A stretch of DNA of 55,911 nt, counting the filler, from Sluysia triapertura (Eukaryota): assembly GCA_046118255.1 (NCBI GenBank). It is 4 parts of 4 records of this genome, joined end to end, with 100 filler letters (N's around TTAATTAATTAA, not from the genome) between each part and the next. Parts side by side here need not be neighbours in the genome. Positions count along the whole stretch, not along the records: positions 28,562 to 44,412 come from JBJNIA010217140.1; 3 more parts are not named here. One strand, given 5' to 3'. The notes under the pieces were generated by a model. That model was not told the DNA's origin, did not search any database, and saw only the letters and a list, made by a program, of their open reading frames with translations. This document shows positions 1,035 through 51,348 of this stretch, in pieces. How positions within the stretch are numbered: the stretch's first letter is position 1; each line of letters begins with the position of its first letter. Position numbers and translations under genes: made by a program.

Positions 1035-2920
1035 TGTGGGAATATTTAAGGTAGAATAGAATAAAAAATAGATTTAACGTGAATCCACCAACGTACCAGG
1101 CTTACCAGTTAGGGCTTTCACTAAGAACGTGTCTAAATCTTTTGCGAATGCCCTAAGGTCAAGGTCTGTGTGTTAGTCTTTCAAATCTAATCTAAATCTG
1201 AAGGTGTGCAGATATTGTATTCTTGGCTTATTGTTAATTTCAGATTTCAATATAGGTTATCTTTAATATTAAGTTTTTCTGAATAATTAAAGCAATTATT
1301 ATTATTCAACTAGAAAGATAAATAATTTATGAAGTATTTTACGATGATCCTATGAAAAGGAACTACAAAAATAATTTTTCGAGATTAGATTTAAATTCTA
1401 ATCGTTGAAAACGTTATTCTTCTTAGATTTTATATTTAAAACTATGAAATTTATCAAAAATAATTACTCGAAAAAAAATTTATTAAATACTTTGGTAAGG
1501 TTAATTTATTTTGAAAGTTTATATTTAAGTTTACGTTTCTGTTTGTGGTATTTTTAAAGTTTAGAAAAAGGTTATTGATTAATTTATCTTTAACGTTTAA
1601 TGTAAGATTAGGAACAAATTTATGACATAAGTTAGATAAATATAAAATAAATATATATAGATAAATATAAAATGTTTATTATGAAATTGCCGAGTTATAT
1701 TTGTAATATATACGTTTGCTTCTGCTCATATCCCTTGGAATACGATCGGTTTCGCTGTTTAAAAGAAATTTAGAAAAATGATCAATATTATATAAAAATA
1801 TATTCAATATTACTTTATAAGATTTTTCATGAAGATCATTGATTGAGACTTGTCGAGCTACGGAATTTATACTTTTATAAAACTTTAAACGGTAATTAAG
1901 TGCTAGTACAACTAAAGTCTTATCATGATAGTTTTATTACGTCTTTATAATCAGTTTGATGGTGTACGTTGTAGCTCGTAGGTAGTTTGACCAGAACTTT
2001 GTCATCATCACGTTCATATGTTGAGTGCCAAATCAATAGTTGAAATGTATTTTTATGATCAGTCTGATAATATACAAAACAATTCGTAAATGGCTTGATC
2101 GAATCATTATCGTCGTCTGGGTTACGCACTAAATAACTCAAAATTAGTTTAATTACATTTTTACAATTGTGATGATCAAATATTAGATGGTTTAACAATA
2201 GTTTATCTTTACGATTAACTTTATCACGTATTAGATAGTTCAAAGATGATTTGTTTATATCATTAACTAAGCAAATACTAGGTAAAAGTTTACAGTTAAA
2301 GTTAAAACGTAATAAAAATAGTTAATTTGCGATGAATTAAATTAATTCCTGAGTCTATAGTATTTTAATGAAGATTTTACGCCAGATCTATTATAAGATC
2401 TTTTAATAGAACATGATTTTGAGTATATTTTACGTGGATATATTTATTGTATATCTTTACCTTAACACAAATAAACTAATGTAATTATTTGTCAAAAAAC
2501 AGAATTTTTCAAATCCAGCAGATTTCTCCAAAAGTTTTTGTTTCTTCCCAAGAATATATTAAAGTCGTGCTTGTAAATAATTGTGTACTATCTGACAAAT
2601 TCTGTGACTATTTATAGTTGTTTTAATCTGACCTTGGCCAGATTAAAACAAATTAAAAATTTTTGAACTAAAATTTATACTTAATAATTATAAATTAACA
2701 AATAAAAATTAATAAATTAACAATTAAAAATTATTTACATATTCATAAGATTCCAAAAATTGCAAATAAATTATAAAACAAATAATTTTGTAATAAAACA
2801 AATAATTTAATGTAAATAATATGTTTATAAAATAATCAATAAATATTCATTCAATAATATGTGCAAATAAAATGAATCATCAATTTATTACAAATCAATT
2901 TATTACACATCCAATAAAAA
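1035..2920 (-). repeat. LTR-like 3' terminal segment (U5-like), copy A of the hairpin-bearing family
   Basis: On the minus strand it ends ...ATTCCCACA at 1035. Colinear similarity with 35896-37030 (GTAGAATAGAATAAA, GATCTATTATAAGATC, AATCTGACCTT..CAGATTAAAACAAA) and, inverted, with 46480-47519. Minus-strand AATAAA motifs near 2884-2904. Lies 3' of the gypsy pol remnant. Confidence 0.7.
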
Positions 2921-3340
2921 CATGTTAATGTGGAATTCATCGTAGGCAACATTTCAGGGTAATATTAGCTAATTTTACGTTTTTTAAGTTGTTGGTAGCA
3001 AAAATATCTTTTTGACCGGATTCTAAAATAACTTGAGGTTGATAATCTTTTGATGTCATTTCCTCTAAATGCATGTTTCTGGGGACTGCCTGTAATTCCG
3101 AAATGTATGTTAGACAAACGCAGCCTACTAAAGTGGATCGTAATTCTGTTAATTGCATTCCTCCGAATATAGATCATAGTAATTGTTCGCAGCGTACTCG
3201 TAAATCGGTGGGGATAATGATTGAGCCTCGCAGGCGAAATGCAAACTTTCAAGTTTTTTAGATGATAGATAAATTCGTGCTATTTTATGGATTCACTAAA
3301 TTATTTATGTAGTATTCGGAAATAAATAATTAATAATTAA

Positions 3341-7807: not shown

Positions 7808-7859
7808 GTAAGTATTTTATTGAATTTGAATAATCTGGAATTTATTTTACAACAAAATA

Positions 7860-8399: not shown

Positions 8400-9075
8400 T
8401 TGAGCAACTCTTCACGTGGAATCTTGACTTCGTAACATACATTGAGGATTCATCGTACAACGTTCTTTGACGAATTAAACTATTCATACGGATTTGCAGT
8501 CGTTTAGAATCTTATCGTTAGTTTTGTATTTTTAAGTTCCCGCAACGTTTAAGGTTGCATTATTAAAATACACTTAAATTCTTTGTTTAATTTTGAAATA
8601 GTTATCTTTTATTGATAGCTCATTAATATACTTGATTTAAATTTATCATAACATAGGGATTATTCCAGAAATAATCCATTTAACATTGCTGTACTATATA
8701 TTATTTTTTATTATTATTTTTATTGCAGTTCATTTGTACAGTTTCATCATTTAATAAACGTATTATTTTAAATATTATTTTCTAATTTATTTTAATATCT
8801 AAATAAAGAATAGGTTCGGTGTAAGAACCTTATTAAAATCATTACTGGTTCCAAGTAAGAACCAATTTTAAATTCCAATCAATTTAAATAAAATAATTTT
8901 CTTCTTAATAATAAGAAACCTCCAACTAAATATACGACATTTTTTGTGATATTCAAATAAATTCTTTATACGATAAATCCAACGGTTGGCCATTTTTATT
9001 TATGCCCAATACGTTGGCGGACTCACTTTCAATTTATCTTTATTCTGTACACCCTTCACTTCACATTTTCTTACA
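8400..9075 (+). repeat. LTR-like 3' terminal segment, copy B
   Basis: Ends ...TTTTCTTACA at 9075; hairpin at 8979-9017; inverted homology to 13084-13780 (e.g. AGGTTCGGTGTAAGAACCT vs AGGTTCTTACACTGAACCT). Confidence 0.65.
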
Positions 9076-28561: not shown

Positions 28562-28638
28562 AGGAGAAACATGAGGTTCCTTCACGAAACCCATGGGCTC
28601 GAAGGGTTCCTAGAAGTATAAAAGGTTGAAGACCCCTG
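28562..28638. mobile_element. hAT (Charlie/Buster-like) terminus
   Basis: ...GGGTTCC...AAAAGGTTGAAGACCCCTG followed by GCTTAGAG, a Buster-type target with central TA. Confidence 0.7.
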
Positions 28639-30270: not shown

Positions 30271-30486
30271 GTAAGAAAGTAAGCACTGTTGATGATAACA
30301 ATTATGAACCTAATTTAATACCGACTTGGAAAGATATTTTACCGCTCGCTTTAGCAAAATTGACCTATCAAACAGCTGTACATACTCCTAGTATGTTAAA
30401 ACTAATGTTTGGACAAGTCAAGGAGGAAGTAAAATCGGCTGTCGATAAACAATTTGAAAAACAGCGAAAAGCAAAAGAATTGGAAG
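30271..30486 (+). CDS. DNAJC1: Internal host exon, DNAJC1 (MTJ1/ERdj1)-like
   Basis: Polypyrimidine tract and tttag| 216-nt open phase 1-1 exon |gtttgg. Encodes KKVSTVDDNNYEPNLIPTWKDILPLALAKLTYQTAVHTPSMLKLMFGQVKEEVKSAVDKQFEKQRKAKELE, resembling the remembered PxWxDLLP segment of DNAJC1. The exon is solid; the identity is less so. Confidence 0.55.
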
Positions 30487-31094
30487 GTTTGGTTTTATTA
30501 TAATAATAGATATTTCTTAAAATATTTAATAAGTTATCTTGATCATATTTTTTTAAAAGTGTTTGAAGTTGGGTGGCAAAGTTATCCTTTCTGTCTGCTA
30601 CATTTTTCAGGGTATATAATTGTTTAAATTCTAAAAGAATGTATTAATTATGTCTTTTTGAATAAAACGTCAATTTTGTTTGCAAGAAATTCAGCCTTGT
30701 TATGATTATTTTCACTAATTTTGTCAACATTATTATTAATCTTTTGTTTAATTAACTCGTTTGGTAAGTTATCTTAATGGTCAAGACCTTAACCTTTTTT
30801 GCCTGCGATAACTGTCTACTAATATATTATACTTTCATTGCTAATTAATTATCCAACTATTTTGTAATGAGGCACATTACATGCATCAAATACTATTTAT
30901 TTACTAGCAAATGAAATTTAATAATTAAAACAATATAAAATGAAGTGTTGAACGATTTCTCTTTAAAATAATAAATAAAACTGAAATTTTGTTCATAAAC
31001 AACATATTTTTTAAAAAGATGAATTTTAATCGATAATATAATTCCATTATATTACAATTTTTGTAAATTTAAGATTACTAATGAAATACTACAT

Positions 31095-34000
31095 CAGTGG
31101 CGTAGCTACGCTTTTATTATTTTTATATATTTAATTAACTTTTTTGTTCTTTTAAAAATATTAAAATATCAAATCCATTCATTTAAAAAATTAAATTATA
31201 ACTACAAAACAGTAATCATCCACGTAACGTCATCTATTGGTTTCGGAACTCCTATTATACCATAAGAAATGGGAACTCCTTATTTTTTTGTTACTTAAGA
31301 AAATTATACATTATGGACATTGAAGGCGAAGATAATATGAATAAAGATGACAGTACAAGAAAGTTGTCATCGAAATAAAACTGTAAAATGAAATTGTAAA
31401 ATAAAATTGTGTGTTTACGTCTAAAATTTGTTTTACATAGTATCAATTCGGCCTTGACCGAATTGAAACAATTAATAATTAAAACAAAAAATTAAAATCT
31501 TTAAAATTTTAAAATTAAAGCTTTTTCTGATCACGTTAATTTTTATAATTTTTTAATTTAAAAATTACAGTTAATTAAAAATAAAATTACAATTTAAAAA
31601 ATTACTTTTATAAAATTTGAGATTTCCAAATAAAATTCGAAAATAAAATTCCTAAAATTCCAAATGAATGTTCAAAAACTAAAAAATTGATAAATGTGTA
31701 TAATAATTGTATGTTTATAGTTATATATAAATATAGTACATCAATCGGATCGAATAATAATAATAAGTAATTGTGTATTATTGTGGAATAATAATAATAA
31801 ATAATCATTGTGCATTATTGTTTATTGTGTATATTATTAACAGAAATATACTGAGGAAAATCGAATCCACAGATTTCGAAGGTCTCATTTCGAAATTTTA
31901 AAGTTCAAATGTTTGAAGATTTTGATGATTTAAATATGAATTTTCGATATTTAGTTGACACATTTAATAAATAAATATCAATTTAATAAACTTACTCTAA
32001 TAGGTTATTCAGTCAAAAATGTTGAACGAAATAAATTGACACTTTCAGTTATTTCTTTTGATTCTAGTTTTGTTACACAATCCCATATAAATCGCTATTG
32101 TTGAAAATAATGAAATTAAGTAATCGAAAAAAAATTCAGAAACAAACATTGTATATTAGAAGAACAAACTGAAACTGCTTCTTCGAAATTGGACGTAATA
32201 TCGGTTGAAATACATTTAGCTCATGATATTTTTCATTATGAATTTAATCCTTCCACGACAATAAAACAAGTTATTGAAACTGTTAATGAAGAACGAAATA
32301 TTTTAAAAAAGTATTGACCGATATACATATTCTCAAGAACCGATAAATAATGGAAATAGTAGTATTGATGATCAGCTTTACTATCGGATTATAAAGATTA
32401 TCAGTTTTCACTGGTCGAGTTAAAAAAATGTTTTTGTCTTCATGAAAGACTTGTGCTTAAGCCACTTTTTAATAAAATATAGAACAAAATTAACAATCAA
32501 ATTAAACATATATTCATTAAAATTTATTAATGCTTAGATTGACATTTATAAAAAAGTTCTTTTTAATTACAGTAAATGTTGTTGAAACTCGGGTTGACCT
32601 TTCCAGACCTTTTTTGAATTGCTCCTAAAGAATATTAATACAAAGAAACAATTATACAGTATTACCGTAAAATTGTGATACACAAAAAAATTGGCCCAAT
32701 GTTTAAATATTGATAGAAACTCGAAAATTATTGATGAAATAAGTAAATCAACTGATATTGGGCACTACATTAATGTTAAAGTTGCTGATGATATTAAAAG
32801 TTTATTAATTAATAATTCTTCTAATCACAAGGATAATTTACGAAGGATCCTGTTCAATAAAGTAGAAGTTTCAATGCTTCATACTATAATTTAAAGATAA
32901 AATGTGGAACAGTGCCACGGCCTTGGTTATGCTATTCAAAGTTATTGGATTCAGTATATTGCTGGTTATTTTCTAATCAAACAAATCAATGGTGTTCTGG
33001 ATTTCGGGATTGGAAAAACTTGTCGGAATAAATAAAAATGCATACACTATATGGATTGTTATAGAGTTTATGATTTATGAAACTTGCGAGAAATTCTCCA
33101 TCATTTCGTGGACATGATGAGTTAATTGGAAATGTTTACAATGGACATTTTTTTGTCTGAAGTTGAACTTTAGCAGATTATAAATGCCAACTGGTTCGAT
33201 TAAATATTTAAATCCAAAGTGAAATAATTCAATGTATTTGAGAAAATTTACTGGAAAAATTAATTACTAATATGAGATTAAGTTCGTGGTACTCCATTTT
33301 ACTTGATTATACTCAAGTTGACCAATTAAGCGTTATTAGATATGTACAAATTACTAGAAATCATAGAACCAATTGGTTTTGAAATAAAAGAACCAATGAA
33401 AATTATTTCTTTTTAAAGAAAAATTTGATTTAAGAATGTGATGAAAAGGATATATAATGGATTTCAAAAAAAATAAAAAAATTCAACCAAATGCTGAATA
33501 TATTCATTTGAATTTATTTTATAACTGAATTCATGCAAAAAATATTAACAGAGGTAAATTGTGCTTCAAAAGTTTTACAAAAAAAATAAAAGAAAAAAAC
33601 AATACAACTAAAATTAGATCTATTTAAAATGAAATTAAAAATGAAGCAATCGAGTTATCAAAATCCTGGGAAAAAGACAACCAAAAATAAATAACACTAT
33701 GATGAGCTAGCCGATGACAATGGATTCGAAACAAGAGAAGGTATTTTTAAAATTCAAGTTTATAATTTTGTAAGTGATCGTGTTGTAAATTAAATAAAAA
33801 GATTTGAACATATGGATAATGTTGTGAACTATTTTGACTTTTTAGAATCTAAAGAATTATTAAAATTATGAACAAAAGAAATAAGTTATAAATGCGACAA
33901 GTTACAAAAAACACCCACAATTACTAACAGTCATATTTGCTATACAGTTTACAAACTGTTTTGTTGAAAAGCGATTTAAATGAATCTATATTAATAAGGA

Positions 34001-34550
34001 ACTTTGCAAATATTATAATTGAAAAATTTAGTTCTTGGAAAGTGATTTATCTGATGTATATACAATGTTTATTATATTTTTTTCACTTTCCAGGTGACTA
34101 TTGCTACAGTAGAAAGAACATTAAGTTAACATTAAGCAAATTAAAAATTATAAAAGATTTAAAAAAGAAATTCAATTGGACAATCTCGTCTGAAGTATTT
34201 AGCATTGATTTTTATTGAGAATAAAGAAGCAAATCAATTAAATACTAAGACTGTGTTTGATAAATTTGCGGCTGCAACATCTAGACGAAAAAGAATTTAA
34301 ATATCTTTTTATACTTTTGTTTATATTCAAATATATTTTGCTTTTTATTTATAATCATTTTTTAACGTTTAACACTTGTACTTATTTGTACTTTAAAATG
34401 ATTATATATATGTATATGTTTTGCTTAATATATCTATTTCGTTCTCTTAAGTTGAAAAAATAATTTTCCTTCGTATAAACAGTTGAAATAAAAAAATATT
34501 AGTAAGGGCTCCGTACTTAGAATTTGCTTATGAACCTAGTTACGCCACTG
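31095..34550 (+). mobile_element. Near full-length decayed hAT transposon (ZMYM1-like/Tip100-type transposase)
   Basis: TIRs CAGTGGCGTAGCTA ... TAGTTACGCCACTG. Remnant motifs RPWLCYSKLLDSVYC, GFRDWKNL, FRGHDE, IRYV and TIATVERT..SKLKIIK (hAT dimerisation domain). The 8-bp TSD is degraded. Confidence 0.9.
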
Positions 34551-37500
34551 CACCACTATACTTGTTTGAATGGAGTAGACTACAAAAAATGTAATGCTAG
34601 AATTATTAGTCATTGTAAAATTAATTACATTAATTAAACAATTTCCCAAGTCAAACTTTTACTTTATAAAAACTACGTCAATAAAAATATTAATGATTCT
34701 TCCTAAATACATTAACTGCAAGTGCACATAGATATCACTTTATTGGTAATAAGAATTTTTGTATTATTAGTGTTTTTGTATTTTTACATTAATATTTATA
34801 TTTTGACCAAATATAATTTATCTTTCTGCTGATTGGAGATTATAGTTTTTGAGTAACTAAACGTGAAATCTGTTAACATTTTATTACACGTAATATCTAA
34901 TTGAAAAATATTTTGTCTAGTAGATTTTGTACTATCGTTTTACAAATTTCAATTCTGCGATTTTTTAAATCATTCATATTTCATTAAACTTCTTTACTTT
35001 ACCCATTCAATGTAACGGTGTCTTGTGATTCTTGATTATAAATAGTCAAGATCATTAACTAATGATCGAGGATTTATCTTTATGGAAGTCCACCGTTAAT
35101 CATTTGAACGATAAATACCTTTAAAGAATCAATATATTAATTTTGGCACATATAGATATTTGGTGTTGGAATTTATTACAAGATTGTAAATTGAATTAAA
35201 TTTTTGAATTTAATATTTAATAATAGGAATATTTAAACAATTCTCTTTATTTTATGAATATATTACGAAATGAATTTCCTACTTTTAACTTATGACTAAT
35301 GTTAAAACATGATTTTCGTAAATTTTTATTAAAATAATATTCGTTAAAATTATTTGTCCATAAATGTTTGCTAAAAAATTCTATTAATGATATTTTCGGA
35401 ATCTTGGCAATTAAATAACTAATTATAGAAAAATTAAAATAATGAAAATAAACTAAAAAGGATGTATTAAAATTTAATCTAATAATTTTAAGTGATTATA
35501 TGTTAATAATATATTGTATACTAGATTGTTAAAATGTTGATATACGCTTGTACATATTGGAGGACTGACTTCAGACGGAATAATGTTGATATAATAAATG
35601 ACTAAAAAAGAGAAATTAGAATTAATATTAAAATTAGAATTAAAGGATCGTAATTGTGAAATAAGGTAAAGTTTTCTTCTGCTTTTGAAATCGTATTACG
35701 ATTTATGAAATCTGAGTGTGATGTCTAATGAGTTGAAGTATGGCCACATAACATATAAGATATCATTCGTGTGAATTGCAACAACTTGTTGTAAATTTAT
35801 TTCATTAAATAAAATCATAACAATATCATTAGTTCTATGACTTGATAATAAATGTTCAATTAATACTACTCATTTGTCTAATTCATCATCACTTCTGTGA
35901 GTAATTTAAAGTAGAATAGAATAAATTTTAACGTGAGTTCACCAACGTACTGGACTTACCGGTTAGGGCCAGCCATTGGATTTGTGAATAAAAGAATTTC
36001 TTAAATAAGGCTAAAAGAAATGATCAAAAAGCTTTGCTAAATATTAAATTAGAGACGTCCGGAGGTAAGCTTGATACTCAAGAATTTTATAAGATTTTAC
36101 CAAAAAATTAATAATGATAATGTTATTTGATTAATTTTACGTTGATTCCTTGAAATGGAATCTTAAAAAATATTTTGCGTAATTGGATTTAAATTCCAAT
36201 TGTTGAAAACAATTTTGTCTACAGATTTTACAATCTACAACTATGTAAATTGAATAATAAATAATCTTCTTTAACAATTTATTATAAAACAGTGATAACT
36301 GGTAAAAATAAATAATATATAATATAATGATATTTTACGTGTTTTAACTCTGTAACGGTTAAAATTTCAAAAAATCTAATAGATTTTATCAAAGATTTTA
36401 CATGGGATCTATTATAAGATCCAAATAATTAACAAAATATTTTAAGTCAGATTTTTCGCTGATATTATACTAATATCGTACAATAATTAAACTAACGTAG
36501 TACAAAACAAAATTTGAAAAAATTCAGCTGGTTCTGAAACCGTAATTCTGGAACAAAATCTATTAAGAAAATTGTTAAAAAATTGTGAGATGTTTTCAAA
36601 ATTTAAGTTTATAATCTGACCTTCAGATTAAAACAAAAGTTTAGAATTTAGCTTATTGAAACAAAAAATAAAATGTATTTTATAAATTTATTTTATTTTA
36701 CGTTAGTTTAATTAATTTAATTAAAGATTTTATATTAATTAATTTTCAAAAATTTGTAAAATTAACAATAAATTAAACAATTAAAAATTATTAAAACTTA
36801 CATTTAATATGAAGATATAATTTCCAAAAATAACAAGTAATTTTACAATAAATAATTACAGTATGACTTTATACAAGTAATAAAATGAATAATATGTTTA
36901 TAAATAAATAATCAATAAGTATAATCACAATTAATTCAATAAGTGTGTAGTATATGTTACAAGTATATGCTACAAGTAAACAATCAATGAGTATGTAAGT
37001 ATTAAATTAAACAATCAATAAGTGTGTAGTATATGTTACATAAGGTTTGGAAAGATGTTTTGAAGTATGAAGACACCTTTGAATTTCTGAATCTCTGGAT
37101 CATTTGAGACCTTGTTGATCTTTTGGAATCTTTGAAGACGCTTGAGAACTTAATAAATTTTGGAGACCTTTGATTAATCTTATAAAATGTTTGGAACGTT
37201 TAAATTGTTCAAGAATTAAAATCACGGTTAATAATAATAAAGATAAATTTAATACATTAATAATTAAAAGAAAAATTAGAAAAAAGTTGAAAAAAGAATC
37301 AGGGTGGTGAAGATGAAAACATATAGAGCCTTCTGAGTACCGTATAAAGTATTTGACAACTTTCTAACCATAATAAAATCTTTAAACTTGGAATAATATA
37401 AGTTAAAATAATTACTTAATTAATTAAAATCTTAATTAACTTAATTAAGAAAAATTACGCTTGTGTGAATAACTTTGAATGAGGAGTTCTATGTTCAAAC

Positions 37501-38621
37501 TGTAATAATTTATGTATGTGTTTGAAAGAGACCTTCCAATGAAAGTAAGTTTTTACCGAGTTCACGCGAGGAGAGCCTCTATATTGAGTAAAGTCGAATT
37601 TTAATTAAAAATGATGAAATTTTTTAATTAAATAATGATGAAGAGGCGATGAATTAGATATAGAGTTATTGCTATGAAATAAGAGGATCCAAAAATTAGG
37701 TCGAAATGGTTTGTGAAATGGTTTGTTTCGGAAAGAGAACTTTAAACATTTTCATTTAAAAAATTGAGTGTGAGGATTTGAAAATTAATTAAACTGTAAA
37801 AACTATAGTTAAATTCATTATTTTAAATAGATCAAGTAGAGTAGACGAAAAATGAGAGTTGAATGTTAATCGAATTGCTTTGTTTTTGCTTGATAGATCT
37901 TTAATCTTTAAAGAGGTTTTGATGATTTGTGTAATAGTAATTTCTGATTGTGAGTTTGAAAGTGATTGGTCATACAGAAATTTAAAAACTAATGCTTAAT
38001 AAAAATAATAATAATAAAAAGAATAAAAATAATACTAATAAAATAATATATGAAAAATGCATAAATCCTAGATCATCCACACGATATGTCTTTTTTTCTT
38101 TTGTTTCTCAACATATAAATAAATAAAATGAAATAATAATATGTATATAAAGATAAAATAAAATGAAATGCATATACTTTATTTTTTTAGGTAAAAGTGT
38201 TTCTCTTTCTTATTTCTGTAAATGATCTTTATTTTCTTAGAACATGTATGATAAAATGAAACTTTATTTAAATTAAAATGCTTAGAATGGTTTTAAAGTG
38301 TGGGTTTAATGTTTTTCAAAGGTGGTAATAATTGAGTGTTGAAGAATTGTGAACTTGAAATGTTTAAGATTAATTTTAACATATGTATTTGATAATTTAA
38401 GATATAATTGTGGTTCTAATGTTATGATATAATGGATAAATTATTTTAAATGAAATTTTAAATGTACATTGATGGTTTTGAATGTAAGTTTGGTAATGTT
38501 AATTTTAATAAGTGTTTCATATTTATAATTTTATTTACAAAGTGTTTGTTTTTTAATAAAATTGTGATTAAAACTTTCTTTATAATGTTATTTACATTGT
38601 TATTAGAAAATATCTTAAAAT

Positions 38622-39077
38622 TTAAAATCTATTATAAGCTATATAAACCATAAAAGACATTCTAGCTAAAGAACATTTATTATTATTACTTTTATAAATT
38701 AAAATTTTTAAGTCTGGAGGTCCACTTATGCATAACCCCTTGAGACTTAATAATGTTCCACTACCGGAATAAAATTTAAAAATATCATCATTATTATTTA
38801 AAATTAAATTAAATTTTACTTTAGCAGAGTTTACATTATGATCACTGGTTATAACTTTGGGATTCGTTAACACAATGTGTTTAAGTAGTTCGATGATTTG
38901 TCCATTGTTCATATCGTGTTCATATTTACATTTATTACCATATTTTGAGCAAGCTGCTAAATTAGTTAAAGAAAATGGGCAGAAAGCAAAGTCACTAATT
39001 GCAGGATTCATTTTTATCTTAACATTCTTGTATTTGTATTGGTAAAAGGAATCGACTTTATAATCATTATCATGCAT
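38622..39077 (-). CDS. CCCH-type zinc finger protein ORF (cargo; probably the 3' part of a longer decayed gene starting near 39901)
   Basis: 151-aa ORF, the longest in the ORF track. FCPFSLTNLAACSKYGNKCKYEH = C-x9-C-x6-C-x3-H at 38916-38981. Confidence 0.6.
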   Translation of the reverse strand: MHDNDYKVDSFYQYKYKNVKIKMNPAISDFAFCPFSLTNLAACSKYGNKCKYEHDMNNGQIIELLKHIVLTNPKVITSDHNVNSAKVKFNLILNNNDDIFKFYSGSGTLLSLKGLCISGPPDLKILIYKSNNNKCSLARMSFMVYIAYNRF

Positions 39078-41157
39078 ACATAATTTATGTTCACTGTTGA
39101 CTACATTAAAGCATTAGATGATCTTTAAGTTTTCAAATTCTTTTTTCGTATTATCTTAATCAAAGTAACGCTTTTGTGATGATCAAGGATCAACTAATGT
39201 AATTCTTATAACATTTATACAAATTATCAAATTTAATTTCTTTAAAACTTTTAAAATTATATCATTACATGATAAACTCACAATAAACATAGTTTTATTT
39301 AGAAAAGGTTTAGAATTATACTAATACTGTTTAAATACTTACTGCCTTCAACATTACAGTATTTTATTGTAACAGTCAACATAACGGTTTACATAAGTAT
39401 TATGTCTCAAGAGTAGATATCCATAGTTGTATAAATTACGTTGTCTTTCATCTACGACGATTATGATAGTCTTTTTATTATACTCATGAATAAAGAATTT
39501 CATAACATATGATAAAGAATTGCTATTTAAAATTGATAGATCTAAAACATACATCAATACAGTGATCCCAATATAGCTTGCACTGTTTTGTGACTTTTAT
39601 ATTTACTTCTGTCAAGCTTACTCGAAATTTTTCGTTCAATTTGAAATAAAATTTTATTACTAAAGGAATCTTTATCAATCATTGTTGATGTTTCTTTGAA
39701 CAATATCGTTAATAGTTTGTCTAATTTTGGTCTTACATAACTCGAAAATTCAACACGATTTTCATAAATTGTTAATGATGATAATACACAGGTTCTAAAA
39801 TGACATGTATTAGTTGGAAAAAAGGTAATTTTATGAATATCCAAACCAAACATATCTTTTTCAGTTAAACTCGTAACATTAATTTCCATGATTTTGATCA
39901 CAATGTATAACGCTCCAAAAAGTTTTTTAAATTTTTATTTAAATTTTTATTACTCTGAAATTTTATGAAAATTTTCGATGAAGTTTTTGATGTTTTATCA
40001 GTTCTCTTGCTGATTGGTTATCCAACCAAATGATCCAAATAACACTTTCATATAAGCGCATTTGGTTGTATAACCAATGAAATCGAAGATTCATATTCAG
40101 CACACAAGAGAATCAATTTGATGATGAAATAATCAAATGTGATGACTACCATCATCATCAATGACAGAAAAATTGTTAACGTAAAACAAAGATGTCATTA
40201 TGATGATGGCAGTAACTCAGTCGATTTTAGTGTGCATAATTTTTAATTAATTTTTATTATGATAATGATTAAATGTTAATAATAATAATAACAAGAACAC
40301 TATTGTTATTATTATTATTATTATTTTGCAAATTTAAAAATGCATAAACCTTGGTATCTTTATGTCTTACACGAACTTTTCTTTTATCTTTACTCTTTTC
40401 TCACTTATTAAATCTAATTAAATAAAAGCTCATTTAAATATTGTTTCGAAAATATTTACAAGAAAAGAACATGTTTGTTATTATTATTATTTCGATAAAA
40501 ATGCATATATTCTTTGCTTTGAGACTCTATACACGATCTTTCTTTGCTTATTTTGTGTTACTTAACATATCTAGGTTGTAGAAATGAAGAGAGATTTCAG
40601 TTTTGTGAATTTAAAGTGATAAGGTTTTTCTTTGTGACTTTACCTTCTTTTATGTAATTGTTTCTGATATTCTGGCTGAAATAATATTATTATCTGAAGT
40701 GTTACTAATTCATGTATAGTTTTTCAATGAAAACCTAGAATAAAGTAGACGCTAGAGTTAGTAATCGTGGTGTTTGGTTGTGAATGTTGATGTACATTTT
40801 TTGGATGGAAGGATGTAGAAATGAAATATTTTGAATTAAAATTTAATATGTTTTGATGGTTTGGAGTATTAATGTTTTTTGGATGTTGTGAGGTGTTGGA
40901 TAAGTGTTCATAATGGATTTCTTGCTATGAGTTAATGGTGTTTTTATTATGAATTGACAGATTCGCGGTGTATTAAGAAATAAATTTTTGCTTTGTGAAT
41001 TTATAAGATATTAATATATTTTTTAAGGTTATTCAAACACAACACGATATAATCGAAACTCATAGATATGAAAATTTAGTTGAGTCACATTTGTTAATCA
41101 ATCATGAGCGATGTTCATGGAACACACGAGCGATTATTGCAATGAATGCTTTAAAGT

Positions 41158-41638
41158 ATGTCGGATGATGATGAAGATTATGGAGATAACGATGATGATG
41201 ATTTTAATGATGATTATGAAGTTAAAGATAACGAAGATGATACTCTTAATGAAGAGCTTGATGACATATTAGAATTTAGAGAAAATGTTATTAAACATTC
41301 GAGAAAATATGCAAGTCAATTTTTGCCCATTAGGTAGCGACAAAAATGGCGTATATATAAAGAGTGGAATCGACTGCTGCTATGCTCAAAGAGTCTACGA
41401 ATTGGGGTCTATCAAGAGAAATGATTCAAATTATAATTATCATTCCTCTAGAATAGCAGAACTAGTCAAGAATCTTAGTTTATTGACTACGAAATCGAAT
41501 ACCAACAACTTTATCATGAACGATCAAGAAGTAAATAATTCGTTTATTTATAGTGATAATATTATAATCTATAATTGTTATTCAGATAGTGGAGTCGTAT
41601 TAGGAGGACATACAGAAATTCAAAATTATAATAAATAA
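41158..41638 (+). pseudogene. Acidic N-terminus plus degenerate CCCH zinc finger
   Basis: MSDDDEDYGDNDDDDF... then, removing one T from the T5 run at 41320-41324, KYASQFCPLGSDKNGV(Y)IKSGIDCCYA(Q)RVYEL. The Y (TAT) and Q (CAA) codons are each one base from C and H. Confidence 0.6.
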
Positions 41639-43140
41639 ATTTTTATGTGATTTTTATTTATTCTTCATAGAACAAAAAGTTAAGATCATTTTAAATTTTC
41701 AATTTTAAAAAATAAACTTTTGATAAAATTTAGTAATTTCTTCGTAACCAAAACGCAAGTAACCATTTAAACTTATTTTTTAATTCAAAAAATTTGAAGT
41801 ATAATTTGAAATTTATTAATTATCTTCAACCACAACAATAATAATGTTAACAATAATGATAATAATAATGATAATAGTAATAATAATAGTAACCCAAGCT
41901 TAATGAATAGACCAGGTTTCTAGTAGTAATATCAGCGCTCAGTAGGTCTATTTATTTTTATCGTCAGGTATTAAGAGCATGACAAATAAATGACAAACTA
42001 ATATTTCCATACACCTTCTAACACTAAGCATCGCTGGTCCCATTACTTATTTATTAGCGCGAAGTACATCTCAGAGTAAAATATTTGACATATTCCACTT
42101 TAAATCACGCGGTATCAACAAGCATTATTTATCTTCGTAAAAACATTTGAAACAATGAATGATGGTAATTTGAAACTGATGTAACTGTGGATCACAATGA
42201 TAAAACATAATAAGTGTGAATCTATAGATGACAATGTTTATTAATTAATTTATTATTGGTAATTATACGAAATTAATAAATATGTTCATCGGTTTCTGTA
42301 GCACCTCTGAGAGATGGAACTAACGTGACAATTAATAGATATCCAATTAAGACACAGACATTTCCTTACCTTGTTGTTTCTGTACTAAATTAATAATAAT
42401 AATAATAATCTATTATGATTATGATTATTATTATCGGGCCTAGGATCCAAGACATGTAAATAAATATTATAAGTGAATATTAATATAAAAGCGTTTCCAT
42501 AGTTCATTATTACAATCATTGCGTGGTTTATCAGTTTTAATCCGTTTAAATTGAAAATCATCTCGGACAAACCAAAATGAATTAGGTAAATTATCAAAAA
42601 TATATTTGGTTGTTACAGTATCATTTAACATTCTTTGACTTACCGAAACAGATCTATTACAATAATCTGTGCGTATTACAATACTAACTGTTAAAACTGG
42701 ATAGACACTATCTTCAGACTTGTTATTCGTTTACGATGACTCATAAAATCTAATAAACCACCAAACTGACTGATATCTAATAACTTAACCACCTCGTCAT
42801 AAATCGAGCAATGAATGCCTCTTCCTTCAAAAAATACTTCCAAAACATGTTTGAAATTACAGTCTTCATTATTAACAATATTTTTAGTAAAATCTTGTTT
42901 CTCAGTTTCAATATTATTAAGATTCATAAGATGTTTTTGATCATAGTTACTTGAGTTTAATAAATTATTTTCATTTAGTGTAATGGTAATTTCGACTTCA
43001 CTTGTGGAAGTCATATTCGTATTATAGGTCTTTATTTTTTTTACACCTTTTTAGTACTTTAAAGTTATTTAATACAATTGTTTTCTACAATACCACTTTC
43101 AAATTCAACATCAAATTGTTATTGTGCGTTGTATTGCAAC

Positions 43141-43200
43141 TGATTGGCTGTCCAATCAGAGATATAAAAATAATGAAAACAATCACTCTGGTTGGACAGA
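43141..43200. promoter_or_regulatory. Inverted CCAAT-box module upstream of ORF 42691-43014
   Basis: TGATTGG-ctgt-CCAATCAGAG ... CTCTGGTTGG; related arrangements at 40010-40078 and 50285-50348. Confidence 0.5.
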
Positions 43201-44362
43201 TATTTATAACATAACGTAAATAAAATTGACATACAAGCCACTTCCAACGGTGACAATAATTTACACATAGTAACCAATAGTGGCACCATTGGTACTGGTT
43301 AGATGACAAAACTAAAATTAAAGATCCAAAATAATGAAAATAAACATGATAATAATAATAACAATAATAAAAACAATTCTTTAGATTACTCAAAACATGA
43401 ACTTTCTTTTAATTCTTTCTTGTTCTGAACATATTTAAATTGGTGAAATAGAAGAGCATTAAAGAATTGTGAACTTGTGATGTTACAGATTAATGTTACA
43501 CATTTTGGATACAATTTTAAGGTGTAATAGTGACACTAATGTAAAATGTTTAAAATAAATTTTTAAATGTTATTTACTAGTTTTAACTGAAGATAAATTT
43601 AGGTGTTGAAGGCTTGTGATTTAAGTGCTTTGAAATGATATAAATGCTCTATGTGGATTTTAAATGTACGTTAAAATGGATGTTTAAAGATCGTAATTTA
43701 AAATTGCCTTGAAAGGAGTGTGGTTTAGTGACTGTAAAGAAGATAAATTATGGACTATGATTTGGTACATTCTAAAAGGTAATTGTGTAATGTTAAAAAG
43801 ATATGATTTTGGTTATGTTAGTATTGAACTATGTAAGAAAATGTTTATGATGAATTCTTTGAATGTAAATCGTAAATTTTGAGGGTGAATTTGATTTTGT
43901 GTTAAAAGGAAAAATTTTAATAAAATTTTTAATAAAAGTGATAGGTTGGCCACCACAATTATTATAATTATAATAATAATAATTATTATTATTATTATTT
44001 AATAAAAATATGAATAGTATATTAAAATAATATAATTTCATTTTACTAGATATACATTAATTGAATATTTTAAGTTATTTATAAATATAAGTAAGTAAAA
44101 TTATGAAAATAATAAAAACATGTTTGTTTCAATCAAGTAACAGTTAATTCTTGATCAGCGATGCAGTAAACTAAAGGAATGAATTAAAATAATGGATATT
44201 ATGTAAAGACAATGGATTGAAATAAGTTGATAAATCAAAATTTTAATAAATAATCAATGAAGCAAAGAGTTTCACTTATTTATTATTATTAATATTATTA
44301 TTTTTAATTTAATTTAATAATTTTCAAAAGATGACGATGACTAAGATGATTACTACTATTAT

Positions 44363-44412
<50 letters not shown>

Positions 44413-44512: not shown

Positions 44513-45729
44513 TTATTCATTTACCTTTGTAATCAAGATTATTAATAAAATGAATTTTATTCAAAATTACAAAAATATAAAATTTATAATTAAAAAATTT
44601 ATGAATAAAAAATGTCAATATTTTATTGCAAACTATTAGGTTTGGTATATTCTATTAGACTTGTTATTTTCTATTCTATTATGGATAAATTATATGACAT
44701 GCGTTCAAGTATTTTAAAGGAACACTTTCAAATGCAATTATTTGATAAAGCTATTAAATCACTTCGTATAGCGTTTCTATTGTGATATAATTTTATGCCA
44801 TAGTTATGGAGCTGCTTTATCATTTGGTATGTTTTGTATATATTTGACTATATTTTAACTCATTCCACATTTTAAAAAGCATGCTTATATTATACGATCG
44901 TATTATTTTAGTATAATTTTAAATATTATTTTTATGACCATATCTGGTCTCAATTATTTGAATTCAATTATAAATGTTGATATCATTGTTATTTTATAAA
45001 TATTCACTTTACTTATGCTACTCTGATTTAAATTACTAGCAACCACAGTTATTGTATTCATTTTTATAATGTCTCATTTCTTTGCCATTTATTATCATAT
45101 TGAAATTATAAACATTACGAACACTAATTTAACTCAAATTTGTTACTTGAATTCGAAAAATTATGTCATAGTTGTATTTTTCTCTATATTATTACTTTGG
45201 ACCATTTTCAATGGATTGTATTTAAGATTGTTACAATCATTATATTATAAAGGTGCTTTTTATGCATTAATCCAAAAGGTTAAAGCAAGAATAGAAATTA
45301 AAATAGCATAACAAGTTCAATTGTATTGGCTTCGAGCTTTCATGCCCAATAGTATGACTAAATAATGTGTGTCTGAACATGTAAAAGAATCAAACAATTT
45401 CAATACAATAACGTTTGTACAGTCAAATAATAGTGTGAGCCTATTTATGTGTCTTTTTGTTTTATATTATGGTTTAATAAAAAAATTGAAATTCGTTTTT
45501 GTGGAATTGTTATTTTTTAAAGATCTTAAGCCTAGTTTATTAATTCAAAAATTTAATAATTTTTTAATGCTTATAAAGTTAAAATGTTCTCGTTTAGCTA
45601 GAATTTTAAACTTATTAAATAAAAAATAAAATAAAATGTCATTCTTCTAACAATTTTTGTGTAATTAAAAAATTAACCAAAATAATCTTAATTTATTATC
45701 CATAAAATATAAAAAGATCTCCAAACAAT

Positions 45730-45869
45730 GAAGACTAACGCTATCATCATCTTTTCCTTTTGTCTCAATAGCTTTAGTGCTGTAAAAAACTGGATACAAA
45801 ACCCAATGAAGTTGGCTACAAATTGTGCACCATAACCAACAATAAGATAAAGAATATTAAATACGATTA
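45730..45869 (-). pseudogene. REEP5: REEP5/DP1/Yop1 (TB2/DP1/HVA22 family) fragment
   Basis: After the acceptor tttttag: IVFNILYLIVGYGAQFVANFIGF-(frameshift)-YPVFYSTKAIETKGKDDD, matching the remembered family motif LYLVFGYGA.LLCNLIGF.YPAY.SIKAIES..KEDD. Similarity stops before the expected WLTYW. Confidence 0.8.
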
Positions 45870-46479
45870 CTAAAAATAGAAAACGTAAATGCCACACACT
45901 AATATGAAATAAAAATGATAAGAATGAAACAATAAAAACGATGCTATTATTATTATCATGATTAACCGTTACCATAATCAACGATTGCTATATACTTAAT
46001 GTCTGGAGTGAGGGAATTTTGTGCGTAGGTGAATAAAATTGATAAAAAGAAAGTGATGGATGCTATTGCTTTTGTATGAAGTGTGTTATGATGTGTTGTG
46101 ATATAATATTAAAATGTGAATTATTAGGTAAATCACTACAATATGCAATTCACATTGTTTTTGATTTGAATTGAATGTTAAACTAATATTGTTAATATCT
46201 TTTACTCTTTTTATTATTTGAACAATGGAATATATAATGTAGTAGTAATCATTGCTGGAGTATTCGATGATTATATAATTTTATTTGATAATAGAATATA
46301 AACAATTACTGGGATATTTAAATGATAAAATAATTTTATTTTGATAATGGAATGTAGTAGTAACAATTGCTAGAATATTAAATGATTATATATACAATGT
46401 AATAGCAAGAATTACTATTTTAATACTAATTAAAAGGACTATACAATGTAATGACTACTATTTGTAGTGACTACTAATA

Positions 46480-47519
46480 TATGTACTGACTAAATACTAA
46501 ATATTTACATTATTTACATATGTTGATTAATTTTATGTATATAATAATACAATTATTTATTGGTAATGACTAAAGAATACATTGTTGATTAATGACTAAA
46601 AATAAAATATTTATTGATTAATTTTGTGTTGATCTTGTGTACAATTATTGATTACTTCAACAATTTATTATTTATTTTCAAATTTAAAGGAATTAATCAA
46701 TGTTAATAAGTAAGACTTTAATTATTTTTAAATTATTAATAAAATTATATTTAATTAAAAACTAATTTTATCACAAAAATCATTTGTTGTCATAAATAAA
46801 ATATTAGTTTTGTTTCAGTCTGACATATTCTTCTAACCGATTTTCTACGAAGATTAACTCTACGTTATCAATGAATATATCTTCATTCCAATCCTGCCAA
46901 TCTAATCGTGACTTCAAGAAATCTTTATTCAATTTTTCATTATTGTAGTTAGTTTACTTTTATAGGATTTGATATCGATAAGATATCCACGCAAAATCAG
47001 ACTAAAAATCATAATTGTAAATTATTTCGAATCTTACAATAGATTCATTGTAAACTTTTAACTAAAATAATTTCTCAGTAAAAAGAATTTGATTAATTTT
47101 AAGTAATTTTGTATACATATTTATATATACTTTTATATATACATAACATTTTTAATAATAAACCTTACGATTTAATTTTCTTAATTTGAATTAATTTACA
47201 TAGTTTTAAATGAAAGAAAAATCATCCGTCAATTGAATTTTTGTTAGAATATAAATCTAACAACGAAAACTAATCATTTCGATTCTATTTCAAAGTATCT
47301 ACGAAAAATTTATATTTAAATTTCCTGAATAAATCATATAAGTTGAATTAATAGATAACATTCTAAACAACTAACATAAATTCTAAAATTTGATAAACTT
47401 GACTTAACCTCCAATATTTTTACTTTACTAAATCCAACGGCTGGCCCTCGCTGGTAAGTCCAGTACGTTGGTGAACTCACAGTTTTAATTTAACTTTTAT
47501 TCTATACACTTTTCCCACA
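46480..47519 (+). repeat. LTR-like 3' terminal segment, copy D
   Basis: Ends ...TTTTCCCACA at 47519; hairpin at 47434-47471; inverted homology to 1035-2920 and 35896-37030. Confidence 0.7.
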
Positions 47520-48220
47520 CAATGTAATAGTTTTACCAAGCAATTATTTTATTTAAAATTGATACAACTTCCTCTTTTATTTTCTGTACATATATTTCTA
47601 CTTATACACTATACATTTCTACTTCTATGCTATATTTTTTACTACACACTATGATGAAAAATATATAAATATACATATAAAATATATGAAAAATATATAA
47701 GTAAAGGTAAAATTGCTGTACAAAAGCATTCGTGTTAGATTTATTTTCTTAAAACCTGCGAGGCTTAATTTTAGTACATGTGTAGTCCATAAACATTACA
47801 TTAATAATTTAACAGATTAATTTGTTATTTGTTTAGATTTTTTGGTTAATGAAGAAAGACGTATTAAGGCAAGAACTCATAATAAATGATAATAAACGAT
47901 CCGACATTGGTGCTATTGCTTTAGTCATTTAGGTAATCATTATGTTTGTTTCGAACAAATGTAGATATCATTGCTTACCTTATGACAACTATGATAATGA
48001 CCACTATTAAGTTCCAAACCATTTTATTACACCATCCCACGTAACATCATTTTCCATTGCTGGACTGCAAATTAGGTATTTAGAATCAACATTATTCGTA
48101 TTTCATCTCCGATGCATGCACATACAAACAATAAATAATGAGTATACCCAAAAGTATTAAACCTCAAATAACCATAATTGTAAATCAAAATGGCATAGTC
48201 AAGATGCGATTGATCTAAAG

Positions 48221-49390
48221 CAAGGGTCGACAACTTACGGCCCGCGAAATGATTTTGACAAGTTCATGAAGATATTTGACTGGTTCTTGACCGCATGTTA
48301 AATAATGTTAATAAATTTAATAAACAAAAATTGTTTTAATATTCATTAAAATTCACTATTTAAATTTTAAATTAACCCATGAATTCAAAGATCAGGAAAG
48401 TAGGTGGCGAGTTTGATTATTTCTTTATCGAGCAAAATGGAAAGCGAGCATGTCTTACTTGCCTTGAAAAGGTTGCGCCGAATAAAGTGACCCACAATTT
48501 TGAAAATTTAAAAAAATTACCGGAGAATTAAGGAGAGATGAAGTTAAATAGCTTAAATCTAAGTTTGGAAAGAGACATTATTTTTTACGAAGAAAAGAAG
48601 TGAATGTGAAGCTAATACCCGTGCAAATTATGAAGTGTCAAGACTTATCACTGAAAATGTGAAACCGTTTATGAATAGTGAATTTGTTAAACAATGTTTA
48701 ATGACAGTGGTCGATATGCTTTGTCCAGTAAATATTCAATATTATTATCTGATAGGACTGTCACAAGACGTATTGAAGAGATGTCATCAGATGTTAAAAG
48801 TTGTTTAATGAAGGCCTGCACTGAATTGCAGTTGATGAGACTATAAACTTAAATGGCACAGCTCTGCTTAAAGTGTTCATGCGAGGTGTGACTTCGAGTT
48901 TCAATGTTTTTGAATAATTTATTCAGTTAATTCATTTGAAAGATACATTTACTGAAGCAGACAAAATGAACTTAGATATTTCAAAATTAATTGGCATCAC
49001 AATTGATGGAGAACCGGTAATAACGGGAAATAAAAAAAAGCATTGTTGCAATATTGCAGGAACGTATGAAAAATCTTGGAATTCCACAGAAGCTGGTGAA
49101 AATTCATTGTATTATTCATCAAGAAGCCTTATGTGACAAATCTGTGAAACTGAAGAATGTAATTGACACTGTTGTGAAAGTTGTTAATCTGATCCTATCT
49201 CGTGGATTAAATAATCGCCAATTTAGGCAGTTTTTGGTAGATACAAAGGATGAATATGGAGACTTCGTCTATTTTTCCATTGTTCGCTGACTAAGCAGAT
49301 GTTCAATGCTCAAAAGAATATTAAAATTACATAATGAAAGTGTAGTTTTCCTTCAAAGCAAATCTGTGGATGCATCACATTTTCGCGTCA
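48221..49390 (+). mobile_element. 5' part of a decayed hAT transposon (SPIN/Charlie/GTF2IRD2-type)
   Basis: Terminus CAAGGGTCGACAACTTACGGCCCGCG after ATCTAAAG. Motifs KPFMNSEFVKQC, LSDRTVTRRIEEMS, ITIDGEPVITG, IHCIIHQEALC and GLNNRQFRQFL..EYGD. Confidence 0.92.
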
Positions 49391-49399
49391 AATATTTTC

Positions 49400-51348
49400 A
49401 CTAATGATTGTTATCAATAACTAAATACTAAAATCAAAATAATCAAAAATTTGAATATATATTTTAATAATCACAAAAGAAAACGAATCTACAAAGTGTT
49501 TTTATTCACAATAATTATCAAATAAAATAAAAGAAAATTATTGAAATACAAATAAACAATTTCAATATAAACCTTGATCAAATGTAACTCATTAAACATA
49601 GCTGTTAGAGTAGCTTCCAGTATGCGTGCAACAGATTTATTCATAGCTCGAGCTTCCAATAATTCGTACTTTTGGATCGCAGTATTCAGAATCTCGCAAA
49701 CTCAGCAAAATATGATAAGGAATATAGAACAGTCTTTATTGTCTCGAACACTGAGTAATTTGCATGATACACTTGATCGAAAAACTGGGATATTAGATCA
49801 ATTAATTGTAAACTTATTCGACATTTAATACAAATGCGTAATGAATATGACATTCGTGATGCTTCCGCATAAGTTGAACCAATTTTATCGTTGAAAACAA
49901 ACAAATTACGTTTTTCTCAAATCCGTTGGATCATTTAAACATGAATTTGAATTTGCTACTCGAATCAGTTCGAACTCTATTATAATACCTTGAGACGAAT
50001 CAGAATGTTTATTTAATGTCCTGTATTCATATTAATAAACATTATCTACATCATTTTCAATTTTTCGTATTCAAAAATGTGATCATAATCTGCATGAACA
50101 ACTTTATAATCTGCAGTTTGTACGACTAAACGATCTACTCATGTTTTTCTATCCACCGTAGAATTGTTTGACTTGAAATTGTAATAAATAATAACACCGA
50201 AGATAATTTTATAATTTTTATTGCTCCTTTTTTGTCTCTTAGTTTCTCAATCAATATTATTATGTTTTTTGTTTCTAACTATTAGATTATTTGGCTTGCC
50301 CAATCAGAGTATTAGAAAGTAATTTTAGTAGTATGTACTCTGATTGAGTGACGTATAAAAATTACTGGTTTTAAATAAAAGACGAGAAAACTGGTGATTG
50401 ACCATCATCAGTGGTGGCACTATAATGAAAAATGTGACGTGTAGTGTCAATACTGGTGATGAATTGTTATTATTATTATTAAATAAAAGTAATTACATAA
50501 AATTTCTTGTTATCTTTTAAAAAACCTGATCGTTTCTTTCTGCGTCCTGATTTCTTACATATTGAAATAAAATAATCAGATAAAACTATTGAAATTATGT
50601 GAAGAAGCAACGACAACGTGGTATGCTATGGTTCAGTTATCGTTGTTGCTTTATCAAAAGGCAATGAATTCTTTAAAGCTCAAATATTTATTTTTGAAAA
50701 TGTGAGATTAATTTGAGCTACAAGTAAACTACAGAGTGCTAGAATGAACTCTTAAGGTTTATTAAAGGTTTATAATGGAAAATGCGATTTATGTGTTGAA
50801 TGTAATAGTTTAGAATGTTTGTTAGTAGGTTATAGTCTATTTGATTCAAAAGACCATTACAAAATAAATCTTATCTACCATATTATTGAAGGGTGTTGAT
50901 AATGATTGTTTGAAGAAGCGATAGGTTTAAATTAGTGTGATTGATCCGTGATTGTAGCGTGAATGTTTTCTATGTTTCGGGTACTTGTTAGTGTTGTTGG
51001 ATAATATGAATATGTTTGTAATTTAAATATTATGTATTATGATTATAACTTGGTTTGAGAGAATGACTATTGAGTAAACATTGTGAATTATTTTTCGTAT
51101 TAATTATCGAAGTATGGTGTGAGATGAATGATTGAGAGTATTCGACGAGTTGTTTTTAAGAAGTATATATTGTTAAATTGTTATGAATGTCGAATGTTGT
51201 TTTTGATGTATTGAATAGTATGAAATGTGATTGATTTAGATGTGTTTTTTGTGAACTGATTGTTGTGGTTTTAATATGTTAAGTATAATTAATATTTAAA
51301 GTTGTCAGGTTTTGAGAAAATTTAGAGTTGTGGGTGTTGGCCACTACA
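49400..51348 (-). repeat. Compact LTR-like unit (TGTAGTGGCCAAC start, CCAAT module, decayed ORF)
   Basis: Family start at 51348, skewed region, CCAAT pair at 50285-50348, decayed minus-strand ORF at about 49570-50240, T-rich 3' region. Abuts the truncated hAT. Confidence 0.5.

Follow-up and report, generated by a model that had tools for sequence, protein, structure and literature searches.

Can a long terminal repeat (LTR) carry a series of genes, each behind a promoter of its own? The question is raised by positions 35896-43957 (minus strand) of a window of 55,911 nucleotides from Sluysia triapertura (assembly GCA_046118255.1), which an initial annotation had described as a giant LTR-like unit built from repeated modules of promoter and open reading frame (ORF). 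The window comprises four contigs with N-flanked linkers between them (1-16665, 16766-28461, 28562-44412 and 44513-55911), has a GC content per kb of 18-38%, and holds plentiful decayed mobile DNA throughout. The unit sits in the third contig, which ends 455 bp past the unit start (43957); since four contigs were joined, the proximity of the related loci at 51348 and 22653 to the unit cannot be assumed. The earlier description is largely right in what it observed and partly supported in its interpretation, and the features follow one another on the minus strand in the order that it gave. Positions 35896-43957 are a real repeated DNA unit of 8.06 kb (~7.4 kb once the single-copy gap is left out), bounded, multi-copy and mobile, with TG...CA ends, three paralogous promoter-like modules and multi-copy ORF remnants (Table 1). 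We infer that the unit is of retrotransposon (LTR) nature. The reading that we favour, at slightly better than even probability, is a decayed solo-LTR-like copy from a long subfamily of a very abundant gypsy-type LTR family.

Table 1. Features of the repeat unit and of related loci in the window (strand: -, minus; +, plus;., none assigned).
Feature	Position	Strand	Description
5' terminus, 13-bp start motif beginning TGT, presumed U3 att end	43945..43957	-	Common to 22653 (+) and 51348 (-)
Module 1, C/A-skewed block and ~80-bp box	43360..43944	-	Skew 0.55; homology to modules 2 and 3; depth 2410-6854
Module 1, (TTA)n tract and palindromic CCAAT pair	43140..43377	-	Pair at 43159-43140, 135 bp before ATG
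ORF1, decayed orphan	42467..43014	-	Two frames (43014-42691, 42730-42467); ~180 codons; depth 780-1452
Single-copy or near-single-copy segment	41803..42460	.	Bin depths 42 and 198; private insertion or two-element junction
ORF3, decayed, antisense	41111..41638	+	Pieces of 121 and 60 codons; depth 660-1282
Module 2	40010..41010	-	Skewed block, two boxes, TAA/TTA tract, CCAAT boxes; depth 1003-2496
ORF2, decayed orphan	38622..39889	-	Several pieces, ~420 codons; even depth 878-1069; CCCH-like motif near C-terminus
Module 3	37960..38620	-	Skewed block, box 38120-38045, (TTA)n, single CCAAT 37971; depth 9762-39516
Very high-copy core, presumed R region	37050..37950	-	Depth 112,625-327,537
Tail (copy D), presumed U5	35984..37000	-	AATAAA at 36697 and 36283; depth 2433-14,623
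Conserved 3' terminus	35896..35983	-	Stem, GTAAGT donor-like site in loop, pyrimidine tract, final ACA
Tail copy A	1035..2942	-	Downstream of same-strand gypsy reverse transcriptase/RNase H/integrase remnant
Tail copy B	8509..9065	+	Sequence comparison among tails
Tail copy C	13084..14084	-	Sequence comparison among tails
Tail copy E	46489..47519	+	Sequence comparison among tails
Locus S	49400..51348	-	Other contig; start motif, skewed block, box-like tract, CCAAT pair, decayed ORF
Start P	22653..23300	+	Other contig; start motif, short block, TTA tract

Extent and copy structure

Copy structure was read from the contigs of one DNA run, aligned to 33500-44300 at 80% likeness and summed in bins of 361 bp. 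Single-copy depth in this run is ~20, and contigs identical to the window have depth 16-23; the run shares 45% of sampled words and may be the window's source. Overlapping short contigs inflate the sums, and summed depth is therefore taken as an order of magnitude only, not as copy number. The 20,155 aligned contigs include 1638 that are at least 99% alike, 4206 at 95-99%, 7636 at 90-95% and 6675 below 90%. Depth is 660-327,537 over most of the unit, and the ORFs are part of the repeat family. Both edges of the profile coincide with the bins that contain the termini, which agrees with the bounded unit claimed earlier: the bin holding 43957 has depth 6854 and the next bin outward 52.6, and the 3'-terminal bin has 81,617 against 372 outside, with 212 loose ends at 35983. 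Beyond these edges the six left bins sum to 54-372, the single right bin being that of 52.6. Sharp edges and TG...CA ends are what is expected of an LTR as a dispersed repeat.

Within the unit depth is 14,623-327,537 around the core and 2433-3751 in the tail proper, and it reaches 39,516 and 9762 in block 3, ~2400-2500 in block 2, and 2410 and 6854 in block 1 with the start. The blocks are deeper than the ORFs, and the core and the 3' end are far deeper than block 3. This profile suggests, as orders of magnitude, tens of copies of the cargo and thousands or more of the core and 3' end, and it suggests two forms, a short one (block 3, core and tail) that is very abundant and a long, cargo-bearing one that is rarer. 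The graded depths fit a conserved R/U5 with a variable U3, as in the crapaud elements as far as these are described (PMC10787394). A module 3, core and tail so much deeper than the ORFs could also belong to an ordinary ~2.7-kb LTR preceded by an internal part with accessory genes on LTR-derived promoters, 43957 being a break point, and Burro-like elements do have internal accessory ORFs in the review's description (PMC6431247). Position 38620, however, has neither a TGT start motif nor a purine tract, and the repeat ends instead at a TGT motif common to two other loci, with near-single-copy depth beyond it; such an internal region is very unlikely. The core itself has internal loose ends, skipping joints and graded edges in the depth profile. 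A separate miniature inverted-repeat transposable element at this position is disfavoured, the edges being graded and not sharp. A 60-bp stretch at 37416-37476 reaches a summed depth of 1.6 million at 37425, with many loose ends on both sides.

The profile is interrupted once, between modules 1 and 2, where depth drops to 42 at 41803-42163; a 680-bp contig across 41898-42543 has depth 19.1. The main rival of the favoured reading starts from this gap. It makes the unit a composite of two relatives joined there, one a start-block-ORF1 piece like locus S and the other, of at least 5.9 kb, made of ORF3, module 2, ORF2, module 3, core and tail; an ORF-bearing LTR would be kept, but not an 8-kb LTR with three modules. 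The lack of a target-site duplication (TSD) around the unit also speaks for such a join, as does locus S, a start-plus-ORF piece without a tail. Module 2, on the other hand, has no start motif of its own, the halves share a strand and are alike in ORF depth (780-1452 vs 878-1069), and a private insertion accounts equally well for the gap, so that a composite is judged unlikely. One contig (depth 23) joins 38477 to 40881, thereby skipping ORF2 in near-register between blocks 3 and 2; this observation is weak, and contig joints at 80% likeness are unreliable.

Termini and tails

The start motif at 43957 recurs at the two positions named in the initial annotation, 22653 (plus strand) and 51348 (minus strand): a scan allowing at most 3 mismatches gives four matches in the window, three of them close and a fourth (32769) with 3 mismatches. 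All eight termini in the window are TGT or ACA (starts TGT, 3/3; ends ACA, 5/5). The inverted TGTGG/CCACA ends proposed for copies A and D hold in part, CCACA being perfect in copies A and E, whereas copy D ends in TCACA, with 4 of 5 bp complementary to TGTGG. Self-comparison finds no long terminal inverted repeat between the unit termini. Scans of viral contigs with the terminal motifs gave no matches, and a single terminal-motif match in a metagenome contig, within a GC-rich bacterial gene, was dismissed as chance. Helitrons and Helentrons have TC...CTRR ends with an AT target, or constant T flanks; they were rejected for a unit whose termini are TGT/ACA and whose flanking bases vary.

Integrase-type TGT...ACA ends would also suit a non-autonomous, Ginger-like DNA transposon, or another cargo element with asymmetric ends, moved in trans and carrying separately promoted passenger genes. 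The lack of a primer-binding site (PBS), polypurine tract (PPT) or paired repeat is in keeping with this, an arm of the tail stem complements a portion of the start motif, and LTR-like termini and gene-fragment cargo are known from integrase-related DNA transposons (GingerRoot, PMC6839031). Ginger and GingerRoot elements, as far as described there, have terminal inverted repeats of 100-150 bp and a 6-bp TSD, whereas the unit has no TSD and a terminal inverted repeat of at most 4-5 bp; the oppositely facing tails A and B, moreover, are too unlike to be the ends of one element (z 1.3). A DNA transposon is quite improbable. Long terminal inverted repeats formed by A/B or by D/E were also rejected (z 1.3; ~61% alike).

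The ~1.1-kb tail is present in five copies in the window (A-E). Copy D is ~60-64% alike to A and E and 57% to C; over the last ~90-115 bp the five copies are 62-78% alike pairwise, against ~60% over up to 1.1 kb. The same terminal stem is predicted in four of the five, GTAAG lies in the loop in 4/5, and one stem pair is changed on both sides in copy B relative to C, D and E. The hairpin that had been ascribed to the tail is less secure, since in copy D it folds no better than shuffles (z -0.34) and only copy B reaches z -3.08. In the unit the CCAAT box at 37971 followed by AATAAA at 36697 or 36283 is the order expected for U3-R-U5, yet AATAAA is frequent here, at 26 sites.

Several sequences adjoin the tails. 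The gypsy remnant upstream of tail A (3500-6400, minus strand) is 5'-truncated and contains the end of the reverse transcriptase, RNase H and, by eye, integrase motifs; Pfam RT_RNaseH_2 matches at 5911-6171 (E 2e-22), and a decayed ORF without Pfam match stands in the env position after it. A 2.1-kb unit at 6960-9065 (plus strand) begins with TGTGG, ends with tail B and has a CCAAT cluster at 7231-7296 and a donor-like site near 7806; it lacks a TSD and may be a short relative devoid of cargo. A decayed ORF (45600-46120, minus strand) lies immediately upstream of tail E, in the opposite orientation, and we take it, by eye, to be REEP5/DP1-like, Pfam and PDB having given no confirmation; a C/A-rich block precedes it, and it is possible host-gene cargo. 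Two hydrophobic ORF pieces (94 and 87 codons; 45027-45629, plus strand), membrane-protein-like by eye and without Pfam match, also lie upstream of tail E. A second repeat is found near tails A and E (3308-3421 and 47701-47814), with 45% translated identity and on opposite tail sides.

Promoter-like modules and reading frames

The three C/A-skewed blocks described earlier have C-over-G skews of 0.55, 0.56 and 0.63, within the top 0.2-1.3% of 541 400-bp windows. With microsatellites excluded they are homologous to one another (M1-M2, z 8.6; M1-M3, z 12.8; third pair, z 5.2), and in each of the three pairs none of 100 local shuffles reaches the observed score; the blocks align in patches only. 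The ~80-bp box recurs as well. When box M2a is compared with 3681 windows, its top three non-self matches prove to be those of M1, M3 and M2b, and the best non-self matches of box M3b are other module boxes; boxes M3a and S recovered no module box among the same windows. The two boxes of module 2 lie at 40575-40490 and 40410-40335. Each of the three blocks terminates in an NF-Y-type CCAAT box, and 4 of the 7 RRCCAATSR boxes in the window stand at module ends (binomial p 0.011). The inverted CCAAT pair of module 1, noted earlier, is perfect, and the CCAAT boxes of module 2 are at 40078 (inverted) and 40019. The spacing from CCAAT to ATG is 135 and 130 bp in the unit and 162 at locus S.

The three promoter-like blocks are old paralogs, and the module duplications predate the spread of the unit, as the blocks align patchily and the family contigs are mostly 80-99% alike to it. 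Homologous blocks alternating with unrelated ORFs could also come about through nesting of independent solo LTRs, or through a tandem array in the style of a terminal-repeat retrotransposon in miniature (TRIM) or large retrotransposon derivative (LARD), of the form LTR-internal-LTR-internal-LTR. In such an array complete, almost identical LTR units are separated by internal segments. The unit has a single start and a single tail, so that its modules are not nested whole LTRs, and its blocks match in patches where the family contigs remain so alike; the array was rejected, and nested or tandem origins in general are highly improbable.

The longest ORF pieces of the unit have 163, 126, 121 and 119 codons; two ORFs of at least 119 codons were seen in none of 300 simulated sequences, and a single ORF of at least 163 codons in 3 of 300. 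Every ORF is broken. The proposed pairing of promoter and ORF applies to blocks 1 and 2, which are followed by decayed ORFs, but not to block 3, which has no downstream ORF and is presumed to be the true LTR promoter. The ORF annotated at 39901-38622 is broken into several pieces with a first ATG at 39889, and its CCCH finger amounts to a motif near the C-terminus with a weak Pfam zf-CCCH match (E 0.004; 17 bits vs cut-offs of 24.6-30). ORF3, with an acidic stretch and several Cys, had been overlooked.

The Pfam scan took in 56 ORF pieces of the window and gave nothing at cut-off for ORF3; it was the sole search for ORF3, the locus S ORF and the N-terminal piece of ORF2. No homologs were found for the N-terminal piece of ORF1 among near-length proteins (0/3 candidates), for its C-terminal piece among longer proteins (0/9), for the C-terminal piece of ORF2 among longer proteins (0/254), or for ORF2 read through stops among 1.84 billion representatives. 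Viral loci likewise gave none for ORF2 and ORF1 (0/17 and 0/12, respectively), and tblastx detects no mutual homology among the unit ORFs. In the Atlas, ORF1 reaches 0.95 and 0.94 to unnamed clusters whose commonest phylum is Platyhelminthes (8 and 11 members with record), a lead that suggests a flatworm link; the best value for ORF2, 0.87, is a lead only. Single-sequence structure models of the ORFs are unusable (predicted local distance difference test scores of 41.9 and 28.8). Rfam and tRNA scans gave 0 matches each.

Locus S had been called a one-module version of the unit (51348-49400). It does have the same feature order, but its block is unalignable to M1-M3 (z -0.4 to 0.7) and it lacks a tail. 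Loci S and D as paired LTRs were rejected, the blocks being unlike, the contigs different and ~15 pairings possible; the four bases before start S (51349-51352) equal the four after end D (35892-35895), likely by chance. The block of start P scores z 4.3 to M1 only, and directly upstream of it lies a C/A-rich block with a TAA tract (21500-21980, plus strand), unalignable to the modules. Abutting the end of locus S, at 48220-49370 (plus strand), is what we take by eye to be a hAT/GTF2IRD2-like transposase remnant, without Pfam match. Other remnants, presumably of a DNA transposase (14880-16600), the reverse transcriptase end of a long interspersed nuclear element (17690-18190), a mariner-like element (18850-19580) and a hAT-like element (32100-34300), were likewise assigned by eye and have no Pfam match at cut-off. 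A decayed orphan ORF of ~210 codons lies at 53260-53890 (minus strand), with an RRCCAATSR box upstream at 54567 and no start motif found, and a 400-bp AT-rich repeat of 75% identity occurs on two contigs (23693-24076 and 54960-55340).

The unit as a proposed LTR and its known counterparts

The unit most likely works as an ORF-bearing giant LTR, a class assignment that draws on sequence features and that the check for a TSD failed to support. The gypsy-type reading draws, among other points, on tail A lying downstream of a same-strand gypsy pol remnant. A number of results weigh against the favoured reading. There is no TSD, the five bases on each side of the unit being different; no TGG or PBS follows any of the five ends examined in the window; and of the sequences before the starts only that of P is purine-rich (12/15 purines, against 8/15 in each of the other two). 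Neither a paired copy nor gag-pol adjoins the unit in its contig, and the window has just one instance of a start together with a tail. The other four tails (A, B, C and E) do not match the high-copy core. The stretch from the gypsy remnant to tail A contains no LTR start motif, and the remnant may therefore be a separate insertion. Among the joints listed (15 of 179; between-letter rows, 12 of 74) none bridges 41.8-42.4 kb, where the gap may be a join of two elements. The ORF1 match to the Atlas has low recognition (1190), with 155/256 features shared, and the two reservations on the depth data given above, on source and on copy number, count here too. The TSD may have been lost by decay, or the unit may be a recombinant solo LTR, given that the 5-base flanks differ and that the left flank is an ATT microsatellite; absence of PBS and PPT is expected of solo LTRs.

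If the unit is an LTR, the basic form would be ~2.7-3 kb long and consist of start, block, box, CCAAT, core (R), tail (U5) and ACA. In the long form the promoter block would have been duplicated, by template switching in reverse transcription or by unequal recombination, adding ~5.3 kb to U3, and accessory ORFs would have been placed behind the upstream promoter copies. Modules 1 and 2 would each fire a short accessory mRNA ~130 bp past the CCAAT boxes and module 3 the genomic RNA; splicing into the internal region could start from the 3'-terminal donor-like site (at about 35959). In retroelements, each LTR receives a copy of U3, and ends of the TG...CA kind are sites of integrase action. Termini of the TG-CA type are also described for the LTRs of PMC2664473. 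As U3 is copied at each cycle, the cargo would be doubled, and it would persist in solo LTRs once gag-pol is lost.

ORFs in LTRs, multi-kb LTRs and variable U3 regions are known already. The planarian gypsy-like Burro/GYPSM1 elements resemble the unit in giant size, accessory ORFs, thousands of copies, an AT-rich genome and the flatworm-leaning ORF match; Burro elements are more than 30 kb long, of which up to 25 kb is internal, and they have accessory ORFs and homology to env (PMC6431247). Their extra domains belong to the polyprotein or to internal accessory ORFs, and LTR ORFs are absent from that review's description (PMC6431247). The giant Burro polyprotein is gag-env-pol with BIR, ankyrin, MATH and BCL2 domains, none of which appeared in the Pfam scan, and no internal region adjoins the unit. 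Should the primary Burro literature contain LTRs that are long or carry ORFs, the unit would be less novel. Multi-kb LTRs with multicopy regulatory signals, together with extra orphan ORFs, are found in Ogre (LTRs of 1.9-6.5 kb; PMC6431247) and Retrosat2 (LTRs >3.2 kb), LTRs over 3 kb being uncommon and able to hold multicopy signals (PMC3485330); these, as described, are plant elements with the extra ORFs internal, whereas the unit has 8.06 kb and ORFs between its termini. Coding sequence within LTRs, sense and antisense, is known from retroviruses, with sag of mouse mammary tumour virus (MMTV), lentiviral nef and the HML groups, up to three ORFs occurring in HML4 (PMC2664473), and sag of MMTV is served by a separate promoter within U3, P2 (PMC9412291). 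Unlike the unit, these are vertebrate LTRs of 0.5-1.3 kb, mostly with one ORF and, in the descriptions available, without serial duplicated promoter blocks. The crapaud elements of Podospora share a conserved R/U5 and a U3 that varies across subfamilies, a variation ascribed to template switching or gene conversion; they are fungal, and neither gene cargo nor serial promoter modules figure in their description (PMC10787394). No LTR structure is described in the available portions of PMC8532177, PMC11410931, PMC13238120 and PMC13465017. A literature search, in which subscription papers and Repbase were thinly covered, returned no LTR of serial promoter-ORF modules, of 8 kb or otherwise.

A wider proposal, tentative and on balance doubtful, is that in a gypsy-like lineage of flatworms the LTR serves as a modular gene cassette, in which U3 gains and loses promoter-plus-ORF units while the termini are shared and the cargo differs. 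The notion of an expandable array comes from the paralogy of the blocks, the depth profile and the one weak module-skipping contig. Here the cassette would hold two sense genes and one antisense gene in ~8 kb, and solo LTRs would scatter ready-promoted genes; across copies the cargo would include orphan ORFs, a CCCH-like protein and possibly the REEP-like host gene near tail E. Were the unit only a composite or an internal fragment, it would be an uncatalogued but ordinary repeat. If it is an LTR, it would set a new size mark, being longer than the LTRs in the literature compared, and its length would be a reason why LTR finders that work by structure and accept only short lengths could miss the family. 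In this host group retrotransposon cargo, that of Burro1, has been reported to affect stem-cell survival (as cited in PMC13465017). The LTR would then be a gene vehicle besides a regulatory end, and cargo in U3, duplicated with each insertion and surviving solo-LTR formation, would offer a route to many promoter-equipped orphan genes.

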